64,000 bases of DNA from Vicugna vicugna. Lineage: Eukaryota. Below the pieces are notes generated by a model. The model was not told where the DNA came from. It made no database searches and saw nothing but the letters and a program-made list of their open reading frames with translations. Of this stretch, positions 1,800-33,250 are shown piece by piece (positions within the stretch are counted from its first letter, which is position 1; the number at the start of each line of letters is the position of its first letter). The position numbers and the translations under genes were made by a program. Where the stretch lies: the NCBI GenBank assembly GCA_013265495.1, contig MU058198.1, positions 7,331,779 through 7,395,778 on the forward strand, given 5' to 3'.

Positions 1800-2250
1800 G
1801 GTGGGTTTCGGCCGGCCTAGGGGACCGGAAATAGCTTCGGATGGGATCGCTCTAGGACGACAGGAAACGGCCCGTTACGCTAACTCGGTGGTCCCAGGAC
1901 GGAGACATGAAGGCGTCCTCAGAAAAGATGGTGGCTCTCTGTCTTCCTTCTGTTTTAGAGGAAGGCATTTAACAGCTTCAGTGTCAGCCTGGTGTTGATG
2001 ACCTGGCTCATTCACCCCTCGAGTTGTCTTCTCTTCCTGTTCTGCCATTGACCTTGCCAGCTCCTCTTGCCCACAGTTAAGATGGCCGCAGCCGCTTCGG
2101 CATCCGCGCTCAGGTCGGGCGGGTGAAAGGTGAGGCTTGGGTGCGGGTGCGCGGGCGGCGGTGAGGGGTCCAGGAGAGGGGAATCCAGGGCCGGGATCCA
2201 GGTGCCCGCGGCCAAACGTCCTCTTCCCAGTATCCGCGGCCCACTCAGTG
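1800..2250. promoter_or_regulatory. CpG-rich promoter module of the left KRAB-ZNF relic
   Basis: CpG-rich; ACCGGAA at 1824; YY1-like AAGATGG motifs at ~1926 and ~2080; similar layout to the ZNF688 and ZNF689 promoters. Confidence 0.6.
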
Positions 2251-2859
2251 ATTTGGTCGTTAAAAAAAACTTTTTTTTTTTTGCCAGGATTTGTTGTTTT
2301 TGTTTTTTTTTCATTTACAAGGTACAGAAAACTATTCAGTGAGTGTACTCCCCACCTCCACCATTCCTCTTACAGTTTCTGAAATATCCCTACAGTGATA
2401 GTCTATCTGCCTGTGCCCTACAGAGAGAGTCTGTTTTGTCTATCTATCTATGGTATTTCCACACATTTACTAGCTCTTACTGAGGACACTGGGCTGAATG
2501 TCTCTTCAGTACCTTTAAGTTCAGTAATTTTACATAAGAAGAAACAAGCCCAGTTACTACCCAAGGTTAGGCAGCGACTCCGGCTCCTAACTCGAGCCCT
2601 TCCGCTGCCTCCTCCAGGCCCATTCCAGAAACGTAACATGAACACTTCGAATTTACTGACCCTCGCTGACATTGTGAAAGCGAACTGGATTCTCAATTTA
2701 TGAAGTCATGATTGTAGTGTTAAAAGTTAGATGAGTTACTGCATGTCAGGAGTCTTGTTTTAATGCTCCATGTGTATGTGCCTTTGATTCCAAGCTCTCG
2801 TAACAGAACAGTGGCCAACTCTGCAAGAGCTGCAGTTGGTTCTGCGATGTGACTAAGAC

Positions 2860-3075
2860 ATTAATAATATTAGCTTACCTTGATCGATCACTTACTATAT
2901 GCCAGACTCTTCTAAGTGCTTTTGCTTGTTAACTCACTTAACGCTTACAACGCTTCAGAGCTCAGTACCCTTCTGGATCAGGCAGCTGAGGCACTGACCT
3001 GGTTCCAGACCACACAGCTAGTTTGGGGGAAAGCCAGGATTCAAACTCAGGCAGTCTGACTCCACAACCCATGCC
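2860..3075 (-). mobile_element. MIR SINE fragment
   Basis: MIR-like text: cttactatatgccagac...gctgaggcac...gccaggattcaaactcaggcagtctgactcc. Confidence 0.65.
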
Positions 3076-4169
3076 GCGAGGTCTCAAATTATTGAAGGCA
3101 CAATCTCAGCGAACAGAGACAGGTGGGATTTTAGGCCAGGTTACTAAGATGCAGTTGTAATGTGGAGTAGTGCAAGAGGCTGGGACCTCGGAAGTCAGAA
3201 AAGCTGCTTCTGGTCACCTATGCAATTCCATACCATTGTATTAAATGTAAAGAGAAAAAATTAAAATGAGGCACTGTCAGTATTGAAAAGTAAATAAGAG
3301 GGTTATGTTTAGGGGTCAAGTCATAGGAAAAAATATGTCATTCAGGTATTTGGGAGGTATGTGAAATTGTCCTGCAGGAGGGTGACAGGCTTCACAAAAG
3401 GTACCCTGTAGCAGCTCCCACAGGTGGTCATCTCTTGCTCAGGCCCATGCCTATGTAAGCCTGGGGTCTCCTAGCTGGTCTCTGGGCATCCAGTCCTTTG
3501 CCTTTCCCCTCCATCCAGAGCTGCAGCCTGGTGTCGTGAAAAGAGCATCAACTGAGAAATCAGAAGGTTTAGGTTCCAGGCCTACCTCTGCCACCAGCTC
3601 ACCTGTGTGGTCTAAGTAAGACCCTTTCCCTCTCTGGGCCTCAGCCTTTCTGAGTATATTCTATGGAACAGTATCCCATCAGATGGGAGCACGTGGTCTT
3701 CCCTAGGCCCCTTGGAGAGTCCTCTCAACAAAGAAACCTATTCTACTCTTGGCTTCCCCAACCCTGCTTAAAGTACTGAACCAGACATCTCCAAGAGCTC
3801 CCTTTCAGCTCCAAAATGCCACAGTCCACCCTGTTCTCACCCCCAGGCCCACCCCAGGAACTGCTCCTCCATCCTCCTCACTCAGCCAAAAACCTTGTCA
3901 TCGTCCTGGGCCCCTCCAATGTTCCAGCCCCCACATCCAGCCAAGACCCGAGTTCCCACTTCACCTGAGCCTCTGACCTGTATTCTGCCCAGATCTGACT
4001 GCTCGTATATGTTGGCACTGTGCCCGTTTCCAGCTTTGCTGCCTTGTAGCAGTGAAACTTTGAACCTCAGTTTACTCATCTGTAAAATACGACTATTAAT
4101 ATCCATCCCTGCCTCAGCAGACTTCTTTTCACCTTCTGAAGTGTAAAATATTGACAACGATTCACTCTT

Positions 4170-30199: not shown

Positions 30200-31577
30200 C
30201 ATCACCTGCCCCACTGGAGGCTGTGCGGGGCCTCTTGCTACTGGATCAGCATACATTGGCCGTGTCCTGGGATGTGTATGCAGGTGGTGGGTAAGGTAAG
30301 AGTTGCTGAAATGGTAGTCACAAAGAGGGCAGAGGCAAGACCATGAGGGCATAAGTGCTCGTCATTGCTGGTCTGGGCTGAGGGCCAAGACACCACAGTC
30401 TATCCTACTCTATTTGATGAACGTCAGTGCCCCCAGCTTGGGTCATAGGGCTGGGTCCTTTCTGCCAGATTCTGGGCCAGGCCCTTTCTTTAGGTTACCT
30501 CCTTTACCCTGGGCACTGATTTCTTCAGGAGACTTAGAGAATCAAAACTGATCAGGCAAGCGCTGCCTTTGAAAGCTTTTCATTGCCCTGGGGTCTGGGA
30601 AACACTTGTGTGTTTAAGCAGGAAAGTGAGAGCCTACAGGGGGCCTCAACTCACAAAAGTTGAGAGGGATCTCCCAGCATTCACAATTGGAAGCATCATC
30701 AACAGGGAACATCCTCAGGTGCCGGTAGCCAGCCCTGATCCAGGGGGAGGGAGAACACCACTTGCTCCAAGAGCTGCTGCCTGCTCACACCAGAAGTTTC
30801 ATGGATTTCCAGAGGACCCAGCAGGCCTTGTACCACAAAGGAAGTCGCTGTAGTCCTTACAGACCTATCTGGATGAATCTTTGGTTACAGAGGTGGGGAG
30901 TCTTCACTTTCCATGCCAACTCTTACCCCTGCTGCTCTTTCCATATTATCCTTTCTGTGTCATTACTCTTATCACTCAGTCCCATAAGATAATTATGCTG
31001 GGCTGGCTAAGTCGCTCTGCAACTTCATTTCAGACCCAGTCTTCTAGGCTTCAGGCTCTCCTGTTCTAACAAGAAAATAAGTACTAGTTTGGACCAGGGA
31101 ATCCTGGGGAAGGAGAACTAGTGGAGGCATGGGCTTTGGTTAGGCGTTGAGGGCACCTTCGCAGTGCAAGAAGCCAGTACATGTCCACTACCTTCCAACA
31201 AACAGCAGGCTCCTGTTATAAAAGTTCCATGATGCAGCCCCTCTAAACAGCGGTATTTCATCCCCGATCCCTTACGACTTAAGACTATTTACACACCCCA
31301 TCAGCCAGGCCCCTCTTGAAAGAAGGCTCACGGGAGCCTGGAACAGAGAGGAAGGCGGCCGGACCCCACAGAACACGCCAAGGCGGTTAGTGGCCTCCAG
31401 CACTGACGCCTCTATACTGAACCAACCCTCTTCGCGGGACGCAGAAACCTCTGCTCCAGGAAGAGGTGCACAATACTCGGGTGAAGTGAAGGTCAATGCC
31501 TCGACCTTCTCCCCACTGTGGTTCAGCCCAGTCTTTCCAGGACACTGCACGAGCAAAGGAGCCGAAGGCGGCACCAG
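30200..31577 (-). pseudogene. Highly decayed KRAB-ZNF paralog head-to-head with PRR14. Exon 1 relic 31370-31577, exon 2 relic ~30990-31103, degenerate C2H2 finger 30272-30331
   Basis: CTG GTG CCG CCT TCG GCT aligns with ZNF689 ATG GCG CCG CCT TCG GCT. VLEATNRLGVF|GTGGG aligns with [17 protein letters not shown]. Acceptor ctccttccccag|GATTCCCTGGTCC aligns with ZNF688/689 exon 2 (frameshifted). CPLCDYHFSNSYLTHHLHTH is a finger missing one residue. Confidence 0.75.
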
Positions 31578-31699
31578 TCCTAGTCTCTGGCCCCTGCCAA
31601 ACCCTCCCCTGCAACACAGGAGCCGAGGTTGGTACTGGAACCGGCCTCAATGGGGCCTCTCTAGGAAACAGGGAATTTCACATATCGTTAGCACTCAGT

Positions 31700-33250
31700 T
31701 CACGTTTATTGGCCTAAGAACGAAAGAACCGGAAGACGCCCTTAAAAAACGTGGCGGGACCCTAGCTTCAGGACAGTTGCCTCAAAGTTTCAAGAAGGTT
31801 GGCATAGTCTTCGGCCACGCACTGGCCTGAGAAGATGACATCGTCCGGCCCAATTCGGTTCACCGAGGACAGCGCTTTCTGCCCTCAACTATAATGGCGG
31901 CGCTGCCCAATTTGGCTTATTGCCCTTAGTGGTGATGGCCACCAGGCGGCTTCACTTAGTTTCTCACTACCCCGGAAGACGGGGACCGGCGATTGGGCGG
32001 TGCTCAACGGCTCCGAAAAGAAGGCCCTTGGCGGTTGGGCAGTGCTGGGTAAGGCTAGTTTTAAAGGAGACGGAGGTGGGAGCCGTCGAAGACCCGGGAT
32101 CCGCGGGAGGCGGCGGTGAGCGGCGCGCGGGGGAGGGCACCGAGAGGCTGGAGAGAGGGCGGGAGGAGGGAGGGAAGGAAACTTTTGAACCATCTGGTCC
32201 TGGGCTGGGGAGAGCGCTGGGCGGGGATCCGCGGAGGGCGGAGGGAGGGGGTCTGTGGGCGGGACCTCCCGGGATTGGAGTGAAGGGGGTATCTGCTTCA
32301 CAGTGGATCCCCGGGGATCCGGACTGAGTTCGTGATGCTCAAGCTCGGGCCGCTTCTGTCTAAGTGGAGCTTTGCGGAGCCGAGGCTCACAGGGAGAGGA
32401 GGATCCTCGCGCGGCGTCTGATTGGAGGAACCGCGCTGTAGGATTCTTAACGTGGAGATCCCATGTAGGGATCTGGTGGGAGGTGGGGACCGTCGGCATG
32501 TGGAAATAATGCTTCGGAGTCCTGGGCCACTCGCTGGGAGTGGATGAGGATTGCAGAGGGATCCAGCGGAAACTGAGATTCGGAGGACCGGGATCCCAGC
32601 TGATCCCTGGGAAATCTTAGGGTGGAATCTGAAGGGACAAAGGCCGCAAGAGGCTCGGGGCGTGAGAGAACTGGGGCCGGTGCAATCCAGGTTCTTGCGG
32701 CCCAGGCAGGGAGCGAGTGATCCGCTGATCGCGGCGGTGGCACCGGGAAGACACCCGCTCCCGGCGGCCAGGAGGGGGAGCCTTTCCGCGCCAGGGCTCC
32801 GGCCAGTGGGCTACTGGGAGCCGCGGGCGGACCATGAAGGGCGGAGCCCCAGGGGAGGGGCTGGCCCTTACTCCCCGCTCCCCCGCTCCCCCCTCAACCC
32901 AGGCTGGAGCCTGGGATCCCCCAGGGACTCCCCGGAGCCGCCGCTTTCCCCATGGACTTGCCCGGGGACTCCAGGTGAGAGCGCACCCCGCCCGCCTGTC
33001 TTGAACCCGGGAAGCGGGGAGCCTGGCGGCGGTACCGGGGAAACCACAGAGCCAACGACAGGCTCAGGCAACCGTCCTCTGCTTCTCTCATTCTCCAGCC
33101 CGTCTGGCCGGCAGCATCTGTGCCGCCAGCCCCTGGCTCGAGCATTATGGGGAGCCAGGAGCCCGAAACGGCCGAGGCTGCAGTCCCTTGGGGCCCCTTC
33201 GCCCTTGGAAAAAGCCTCTCGGCGGGTCCTGGCCGTGGTCCTGGAAGATG
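31700..33250. promoter_or_regulatory. PRR14 CpG-island promoter with non-coding first exon(s)
   Basis: ACCGGAAG at 31728; ATAATGGCGG at 31891; + strand donors at 32049 (GTAAGG) and 32116 (GTGAGC); acceptor before 32903. Confidence 0.75.

Follow-up and report, generated by a model that had tools for sequence, protein, structure and literature searches.

Why should a promoter persist in front of a zinc-finger gene that has died? The question arises at the camelid ZNF688-ZNF689-PRR14-FBRS locus, of which a 64-kb stretch (the window) was analysed. It contains five promoter modules (copies M1 to M5); two precede intact genes (ZNF688 and ZNF689) and three precede broken KRAB exons. A first-pass annotation had read them as copies of one cassette whose promoters outlived the genes. 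Our reading, to which we give a probability of about 0.7, is that a head-to-head promoter was duplicated in tandem and that its PRR14-facing half survived.

The two live genes have a KRAB box and a C2H2 array in an intact spliced frame. ZNF688 (4800..6691, minus strand; exons 6496-6691, 6072-6185 and 4800-5320) encodes 276 aa with KRAB and 2 C2H2, and ZNF689 (16804..19740, minus strand; coding exons 19536-19740, 19211-19324 and from 17987 downward) encodes 500 aa with KRAB and 11 C2H2 stretches. No such frame exists at M1, M3 and M5, where the KRAB exons are broken. All five exon 1 copies and the exon 2 remnants lie on the minus strand and have a homologous exon structure, as same-orientation paralogues do. 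At M1, the dead exon 1 (1566..1741, minus) has lost its start codon and carries a deletion of ~30 nt and frameshifts, with the donor intact; its exon 2 remnant (KRAB-B; 690..804, minus) has an in-frame stop, matches ZNF688 exon 2 at a tblastn E of ~1e-6 and is 85% identical to 6138-6197 over 60 nt by blastn. The expected position of the M1 zinc-finger stretch is mostly beyond the window edge. At M3, sequence comparison revealed a frameshifted exon 1 (9537..9750, minus) and a weak exon 2 remnant (9270..9390, minus), and no zinc-finger motif was found between this remnant and ZNF688. The dead exon presumably marks the position of human ZNF785; its open stretch, used as a query, matched a single camel model (1/38 candidates). 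At M5, exon 1 (31370..31577, minus) has lost its start codon and donor and has indels, and a tiger gene model matches 31285-31383. The very decayed exon 2 remnant (31020..31103, minus) was seen by eye and was not significant by tblastn, and no zinc-finger motif was found between it and ZNF689. A wild camel model has a ZNF764-type finger array beyond ZNF688, which is absent from the window; when M1 was compared with carnivore ZNF764, the sole aligned part was the 2075-2137 element. Rfam gave three tRNA-like matches, all outside the promoter modules.

Every module adjoins KRAB exon 1 or its remnant, and orientation and motif order are common to all five. The factor names ETS, YY1 and CCAAT used below are our putative assignments for these motifs. 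M2 (6692..7575), which overlaps 5' exons of ZNF688 in several gene models, has ETS at 6953, YY1-like sites at 6972 and 7040, and TGCCC blocks at 7007 and 7081. M4 (19741..20260) has ETS at 19948, YY1 at 19967, a TGCCC block at 20069, three ATTGG and GGCCTGTTTGAA at 20184; no strong plus-strand donor was found in it. The set of ETS, YY1 and CCAAT motifs is complete in these two copies and partial in M1, M3 and M5. M1 (1742..2170) has a decayed ETS/YY1 block at 1906-1933, a TGCCC-YY1 block at 2068-2087 and plus-strand donors at 2130 and 2161. M3 (9751..10206) has YY1 at 9861, TGCCC blocks at 9850 and 9901, ATTGG at 10021, GGCCTGTTTGAA at 10038 and plus-strand donors at 10066 and 10200. M5 (31578..31930), the PRR14 promoter, has ETS at 31729, a broken YY1 core and TGCCC blocks at 31880 and 31921. 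The two motif blocks reported by the first-pass annotation are present: CCGGAAG-n-GCC(C/T)T at 6953, 19948 and 31729 (two of these one base from the positions first given) and TGCCCTYAA-n-ATGGC at 7081, 9850, 20069 and 31880. Its version of the ETS-proximal block, AAAATGGCG, is exact at 19967 only; copy 2 has AATATGGCG at 6972, and copy 5 has AAACGTGGCG, in which the ATGG core is broken. CCGGAAG is gone from this first block in copies 1 and 3, and most of the block is lost in M3. Copies 1 and 3 retain a plus-strand YY1-like site and donors, and the putative YY1 sites at 2079 and 9861 are near-perfect. A looser form of the composite motif, picked after inspection, occurs six times in 64 kb, always on the plus strand and inside the five modules (shuffle mean 0.27, maximum 1). 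The FBRS island, similarly CpG-rich, has none.

The proposed common ancestry of the modules was borne out by leave-one-out nhmmer, in which a profile of four copies was searched in non-coding DNA. The left-out copy was the top match in 5/5 tests (E = 1.4e-10, 1.4e-10, 0.0056, 2.4e-8 and 7.3e-9), and the next-best match had an E of at least 0.44. With the motifs masked, nhmmer recovered 0/5 copies; homology among the five modules is mostly confined to motif blocks. Eight of the ten module pairs align, and M1-M3 and M3-M4 fail; 2/50 control comparisons reached z 3.5-3.7. The disappearance of the signal under masking and the two high controls are what convergence on generic housekeeping motifs, without descent, would produce. 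Against this, every copy lies directly beside a paralogous KRAB exon, with constant orientation and motif order, non-motif 5' UTR stretches align between M2 and M4 (0/300 shuffles) and between M1 and M5 (1/300), and an equally CpG-rich island lacks the composite motif. Convergence was rejected on exon adjacency, motif order and the 5' UTR alignments; it is already largely refuted and we hold it to be very improbable. The comparisons show that the five modules are real paralogues. Furthermore, adjacency to exon 1 in all five, together with the 5/5 recovery, upholds the claim that the duplicated unit was a promoter plus a KRAB-ZNF gene.

Copy 5 had been counted among the orphaned promoters of dead genes. 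This does not stand, as it is the live promoter of PRR14 together with that gene's first exon; PRR14 itself is live, with representatives from amphibians to mammals, frogs and reptiles included. The first exon in gene models (31907..32115, plus; donor 32116; start point approximate, as in annotation models) contains ETS at 31972, ATTGG at 31992 and TTTAAA at 32060, and is followed by exon 2 (ATG 32952) to the stop (32903..36855, plus). Among the 120 PRR14 models listed, 25 match the first exon, and in 20 of these 25 the match stops at 32116-32117 and the model runs on into PRR14. The matches to 31907-32116 include tiger, lynx, pig, cattle relatives, bats, rodents, elephants and three marsupial models; in marsupials, 34/57 codons agree (E 1e-17) and the donor is identical. 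The donor at 32116 is thus not an orphan, because it terminates PRR14 exon 1 in these 20 models, and orphan status of copy 5 was rejected. Gene models back PRR14 (plus) at M5 and the ZNF genes (minus) at M2 and M4, with no other starts. ATGGC is the sense reading of the YY1 motif, and some PRR14 models begin at the ATGs of ATGGC blocks, which fits this reading. Together the models show that copy 5 supplies PRR14 with its working promoter and first exon, so that no further reason for the survival of this copy has to be sought.

If copy 5 faces PRR14, do the other copies retain a PRR14-facing side? In shuffle tests the far sides were similar between M4 and M5 (0/300) and between M3 and M5 (4/300). 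An nhmmer query combining the TGCCC block and PRR14 exon 1 recovered M3 (E 0.011) and M4 (E 0.048), and exon 1 alone found no other copy. Local alignments of exon 1 were weak (9, 58, 78 and 98 per 1000 shuffles for M3, M4, M2 and M1; 28 in one of 7 controls). Two short patterns, both picked post hoc, mark this side: GGCGGTGAG occurs on the plus strand at 2157, 10062 and 32112 only (shuffle mean 0.29, both strands counted), and GGC[CT][TA]GTTT[GT]AA at 10038, 20184 and 32053 only (shuffle mean 0.07). One donor-anchored comparison alone passed z 3, and spacer likeness among the modules is at chance level. Paralogy of the PRR14 promoter and first exon to the ZNF promoters is therefore modestly supported. 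In copy 1, the element at 2039-2152 matches a deer model in 29/38 codons, 20 of them consecutive and identical, and 2075-2137 matches a fur seal model in 17/21 codons; like all the cross-species evidence, this comes from predicted proteins, which reveal only stretches that chance to be open frames. The far side of copy 3 appeared in no gene model outside camel.

The plus-strand donors that had been listed for four modules fared unevenly. Those at 2130 and 10200, the two strongest, sit in copies 1 and 3 and beat most shuffles (5/300 and 14/300), and those at 7569 and 32116 score 7.6, in a range (7 or more) reached by a donor site in 769/1266 random 700-nt windows. The scoring was trained on 26 hand-picked donors, 2 of which were not located, and it is a poor guide because the genuine PRR14 donor scores just 7.6. 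Homology of the four donors was rejected; 32116 belongs to PRR14.

As the first-pass annotation stated, all five promoters are CpG-rich, with CpG observed/expected of 0.69-0.80 vs 0.18-0.23 in the background, and have CpG-island character (GC 0.57-0.65 over 460-880 nt). Have the dead exons beside them decayed as methylated DNA would? Of the CpGs common to both live exons, 4/11, 11/15 and 6/15 are kept in the dead exons of M1, M3 and M5. Transition rates per base at CpGs (0.14, 0.07 and 0.17) do not exceed those at other C/G sites (0.15, 0.11 and 0.23), so that these exons have no excess CpG decay, strongly for M3 and M5 and more weakly for M1, with 11-15 sites each; under five-fold methylation-driven decay the copy 1 result is not significant (P 0.16). 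A methylated-repeat control had 4 CpG comparisons only and was uninformative. Because the dead exons show no excess CpG transitions, the dead-gene copies seem to be free of germ-line methylation. Gene conversion among KRAB exons could also be the source of refreshed CpGs. The ETS/YY1 block of copy 1 has changed at 6/23 sites, about the rate of its dead exon (31%). The idea that the whole cassette outlived its gene thus fails for copies 1 and 3, as the ZNF-proximal ETS/YY1 block is decayed in the former and largely gone in the latter.

How could such a pattern have arisen? In the reading we prefer, a KRAB-ZNF gene would have stood head-to-head with PRR14 at one common CpG-island promoter. Tandem duplication would then have copied the ZNF gene and the entire promoter, without the PRR14 coding exons, and with it the PRR14-facing half, namely the TGCCC-YY1 block, CCAAT-like boxes, the GGC-n-GTTT-n-AA element and the first-exon donor, leaving at least five same-orientation modules in the window. 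Selection on PRR14 would keep copy 5, and the ZNF gene of copy 5 would be free to die. That the PRR14 promoter was the founder and not a recipient is somewhat favoured, although the founding direction is not fixed, because exon 1 is absent from every non-mammalian PRR14 model found and had no match in non-mammalian PRR14-like N-termini. The opposite direction, in which a ZNF module was duplicated beside PRR14, PRR14 gained a new first exon by capturing the module's divergent half, and the ZNF gene died afterwards, is rather unlikely. It would suit the absence of exon 1 from reptile and amphibian models, the decay of the M5 KRAB exon, which exceeds that of the other two (36% at non-CpG sites), and the further PRR14 model starts at 32335-32438 and 32834, which allow an older promoter within the present intron 1. 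However, exon 1 and its donor were already fixed in marsupials, PRR14 predates every close ZNF688-type match among the 120 listed, and a founder beside PRR14 requires no second event. An extension of the founder reading is more doubtful still: that the ZNF688/689/764-type cluster was founded antisense to the PRR14 promoter before the marsupial-placental split, that the PRR14 promoter and first exon travelled along in each duplication, and that wherever the ZNF gene died selection retained this PRR14-derived half as the start of a conserved antisense RNA acting on the next ZNF gene. If the PRR14 promoter did found the cluster, divergent transcription would here have given rise to a transcription-factor family in a traceable way. 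Wu and Sharp (2013) are said to have described gene birth of this kind, in which antisense transcription from an older gene's promoter is taken over by a new gene; unlike in their model, the proposed product here is a whole KRAB-ZNF cluster copying its host promoter, in a direction that is unproven.

What, then, keeps copies 1 and 3? Divergent RNAs from both are plausible on sequence grounds. YY1 motifs are directional and act just downstream of start sites, and ETS and NFY act both ways (bioRxiv 10.1101/2023.06.27.546584, PMC11160661, in the parts available). Copies 1 and 3 may stay open as YY1 and CpG-binding factors load plus-strand polymerase, giving non-coding RNAs antisense toward the next ZNF gene; we consider this probable for copy 1 and evenly balanced for copy 3. 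A competing view, possible at somewhat less than even odds, takes both as inert relics in which CpG-rich DNA keeps itself unmethylated with help from nearby islands and occasional gene conversion; any transcript would then be noise. The fate of their ETS/YY1 blocks, the chance-level spacers, the action of gene conversion upon the KRAB box and the confinement of the copy 3 far side to camel models all suit it, but it sits badly with the conserved copy 1 element in deer and fur seal models and with the strong donors and YY1 sites of both copies. The suggestion that the three dead-gene promoters were kept as enhancers or RNA drivers, forming one regulatory system for the cluster, is improbable. 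All five are CpG-rich with common oriented motifs, and promoter-enhancer turnover is a described process; yet among the three, copy 5 is a gene promoter of the ordinary kind, different copies keep different motif subsets, and the turnover described is mostly enhancer-to-promoter (PMC6172195, accessible part). No evidence from this analysis points to enhancer activity or to a coordinated system.

Much of this is expected, since tandem genes carry promoters along and a head-to-head promoter survives the death of one partner. Five versions of one promoter, in which ZNF-side or PRR14-side motifs were lost in different copies, are a natural experiment that could separate the motifs responsible for direction from those that protect the island from methylation. 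No literature on these promoters or on PRR14-ZNF promoter paralogy was found in a search mainly of open-access papers; the PRR14 match concerned PRR14L. The available text on the human 8q24.3 KRAB-ZNF cluster (PMC2865497), which there makes no mention of 16p11, describes a similarly old paralogous cluster with CpG-island, TATA-less promoters and common ETS-containing modules; in contrast, alignment of the promoters here reflects descent, three of them stand before dead exons, and one doubles as the promoter of a gene outside the ZNF family. Bidirectional CpG-island promoters, as far as bioRxiv 10.1101/2023.06.27.546584 and PMC11160661 are accessible, likewise combine ETS and CCAAT motifs that work both ways with a directional YY1 and a U1 site further downstream; those are general rules, and here one such promoter is seen as five paralogues, known from sequence. 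At fossil protein-coding loci that give lncRNAs, promoter or exons also outlast the dead coding gene, and bidirectional promoters are named as an lncRNA source (PMC5577775, in part), whereas the putative RNAs here would lead away from the dead exons, whose sequence they would lack. The repurposed elements of PMC6172195, again from its accessible part, were defined by orthologue chromatin marks and went mostly from enhancer to promoter, unlike the paralogues and gene loss here; common to both is that high CpG and U1 sites decide stable RNA output.

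Five related promoter modules each adjoin a KRAB exon 1 or its remnant on the minus strand. M1 (1742-2170), M3 (9751-10206) and M5 (31578-32115, on the PRR14 side) lie at dead KRAB exons, and M2 and M4 are the promoter modules of ZNF688 and ZNF689. These two live genes have intact spliced frames of 276 and 500 aa, with KRAB boxes (6497-6691 and 19546-19740) and C2H2 arrays (4803-5327 and 16852-17997) found by Pfam. An alpaca model matches exon 6497-6691 at 100%, and many ZNF688 proteins match it too. The first-pass annotation, which had proposed a promoter cassette repeated five times, placed the motif blocks correctly to within one base. 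A profile of four promoters returned the left-out fifth as top match in 5/5 tests (E 1.4e-10 to 0.0056), the second-best match having E 0.44 or worse; when the motifs were masked, 0/5 were recovered. Pairwise alignment of 500 non-coding bases put 8/10 module pairs above shuffles (z 3.5-7.3), all except M1-M3 and M3-M4, and z of 3.5-3.7 was reached in 2/50 control comparisons. In an anchored spacer test, 2/6 pairs passed in the 5' UTR (M2-M4, M1-M5), 0/10 in the middle spacers and 2/10 in the far, PRR14-facing sides (M4-M5, M3-M5), with one borderline among 10 pairs in the introns. The alignable remainder of the modules is mainly motif blocks, but their position, order and orientation make descent from a common source secure. 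The family of five copies is real, and is a new instance of known processes. Published work describes KRAB clusters with shared promoter features (PMC2865497), bidirectional promoter rules (bioRxiv 10.1101/2023.06.27.546584; PMC11160661), lncRNAs that arise where a coding gene has died (PMC5577775) and turnover between promoters and enhancers (PMC6172195). A partial literature search found no account of these promoters or of their kinship with that of PRR14.

The most striking part of the family had been misread. Three promoters were said to stand before dead genes; the KRAB exon at M5 is dead, but 25 of 120 PRR14 models carry an N-terminal extension that aligns to M5, and in 20 of the 25 it ends at 32116-32117 and is followed by PRR14 exons. 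Therefore, the third of these promoters has, by gene models, a live client, and M5 is the PRR14 promoter. The evidence for this exon 1 is annotation models rather than reads. The matching models come from carnivores, pig, cattle relatives, bats, rodents, elephants and marsupials (three models; 34/57 codons identical, E 1e-17), and for two of them the end lies near 32041, not far from the donor at 32049. Because the reading frame of exon 1 differs between species, it was probably kept as DNA and not as protein. In models from marsupials, elephant and cattle relatives, 31946-32116 forms an open frame that is joined in frame to the main protein, possibly as a lineage-specific N-terminal extension; in the window, the ATG that lies upstream at 31893 is in another frame. 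A further PRR14 exon (35177-35758) is 99% identical to wild camel, and a partial Tantalus domain at 36577 falls under the curated Pfam cut-off. A gundi PRR14 model, which reflects either a faulty prediction or read-through transcription, opens with sequence that matches 20083-20226 in the far side of ZNF689's promoter (57%, E 5e-12) before it reaches PRR14 exon 1.

The copies do stay CpG-rich beside decayed exons, as first proposed: CpG o/e was 0.69-0.80 in all five promoters versus a background of 0.18-0.23. CpGs common to both live exons were retained at 4/11 (M1), 11/15 (M3) and 6/15 (M5), and per-base CpG transitions in the dead exons were not commoner than at other C/G sites. If methylation raises CpG decay ten-fold, the chances are 7e-4, 4e-9 and 1e-10 (M1, M3, M5), and with five-fold decay 0.16, 8e-4 and 4e-4. 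Gene conversion is a caveat on any reading of M1 and M3 as live. The KRAB-A boxes of ZNF688 (6497-6620) and ZNF689 (19537-19660) differ at 7/124 bases and 1/22 four-fold sites, although exon 2 differs at 39/114 bases, and in one marsupial model both KRAB boxes share lineage-specific residues. Such likeness suggests gene conversion over a long time or constraint at the DNA level. Orthologous non-coding DNA was viewed via fused gene models. In a deer model, 29/38 codons (20 consecutive) match across 2039-2152 of M1, and in a fur seal model 17/21 match across 2075-2137; the conserved stretch takes in the YY1-like site (2079) and in deer also the donor at 2130. This is within the roughly 50-80% that non-camelid models show over the 5' region of live ZNF688. 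For M3, no conservation was found in the fused models outside camel. A pattern search recovered altered M3 exon remnants in models from two whales and a hippo, and three further whale models showed them by eye, which suggests that the exon loss may be old. Fused ZNF689-ZNF688 models (window 4800-19740) occur in camelids, whales, hippo, shrew and elephant shrew, and fused ZNF688-ZNF764 models in deer, dog, fur seal and a bat; they are either read-through or annotation artefacts.

The cassette is not whole in every copy. In the ETS/YY1 block, nearest the ZNF gene, 23 positions are common to both live copies. M1 has changed 6 of them, with both ETS and YY1 cores broken; since its dead exon differs from the live exons at 31% of shared non-CpG sites (M3 25%, M5 36%), the block was kept no better than the exon. 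M5 has changed 5 (ETS intact, ATGG broken), and M3 retains a fragment. The second block, TGCCC-n-ATGGC on the PRR14-facing side, was kept, with 3, 2 and 1 of 15 shared positions differing in M1, M3 and M5.

Several signs, each modest, agree that the copies may have carried PRR14's side. Using nhmmer, the second block plus PRR14 exon 1 found M3 (E 0.011) and M4 (E 0.048). Two short patterns, both picked after inspection, also speak for it. GGC-n-GTTT-n-AA, preceded by ATTGG or GTTGG, is aligned in M3, M4 and M5 and has no further occurrence in the window (shuffle mean 0.07). The sequence around the PRR14 donor, GGCGGTGAG, has other plus-strand copies only at 2157 (M1) and 10062 (M3) and one minus-strand copy elsewhere (shuffle mean 0.29). 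It speaks against it that exon 1 alone found no other copy with nhmmer and that local alignment of exon 1 was significant for M3 only (9 of 1000 shuffles; 28 of 1000 in one of 7 control stretches). The donors first listed at 2130 and 10200 score high (5 and 14 of 300 shuffles) but are not PRR14-like; those that are, 2161 and 10066, score lower. At 10021-10049 and 20165-20195, ATTGG precedes (G/A)GCGG, which four bases separate from TTTGAA, the spacing of CDE/CHR promoter elements of cell-cycle genes; where TTTGAA stands, the aligned PRR14 sequence reads TTTAAA (32060).

The simplest account, to which we give a probability of roughly 0.7, is that a head-to-head promoter was copied along with a ZNF gene. 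M2 and M4 serve the live ZNF genes and M5 serves PRR14; M1 and M3 no longer have the block beside their dead ZNF but kept the plus-facing parts, and they probably make non-coding RNA that runs antisense toward the ZNF gene that follows. The ATGG sense reading of a YY1 motif points in the direction of transcription. Every AA-n-ATGG site in the modules reads on the plus strand, which by that orientation is PRR14's direction, and in M5 the PRR14 models start at the ATGs of these sites. bioRxiv 10.1101/2023.06.27.546584 and PMC11160661 state that ETS and CCAAT sites work in both directions and that the YY1 site works on one strand, just downstream of the start. The founder of the cluster was perhaps the PRR14 promoter, a reading slightly favoured because PRR14 is present in frogs and reptiles and its exon 1 in marsupials. 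Exon 1 has no match in any non-mammalian model and intron 1 holds alternative starts by gene models; for these reasons we also consider the reverse course, in which PRR14 captured the divergent half of a ZNF module's promoter, which we think rather improbable. A cluster founded on the PRR14 promoter that also keeps conserved antisense RNAs at its dead copies is a little less probable still.

Directly behind the M3 donors, 10640-13750 holds sequence in two orientations that, by eye, is presumably of an L1-like family and from which a plus-strand RNA could draw exons or poly(A) signals. tRNA-like SINE copies related to each other lie at 21600-21720, 54221-54293, 57418-57489 and 60063-60133. The gene at 39395-49496 is presumably FBRS, from gene order; Pfam gave no match for the one of its exons that was searched. 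Just 5' of its start codon (38640-39280, plus strand), TTAAAG(G/T/A)G occurs ten times, most copies reading TTAAAGGGG with GGCC-like bases behind it, and only four further plus-strand copies lie elsewhere in the window.
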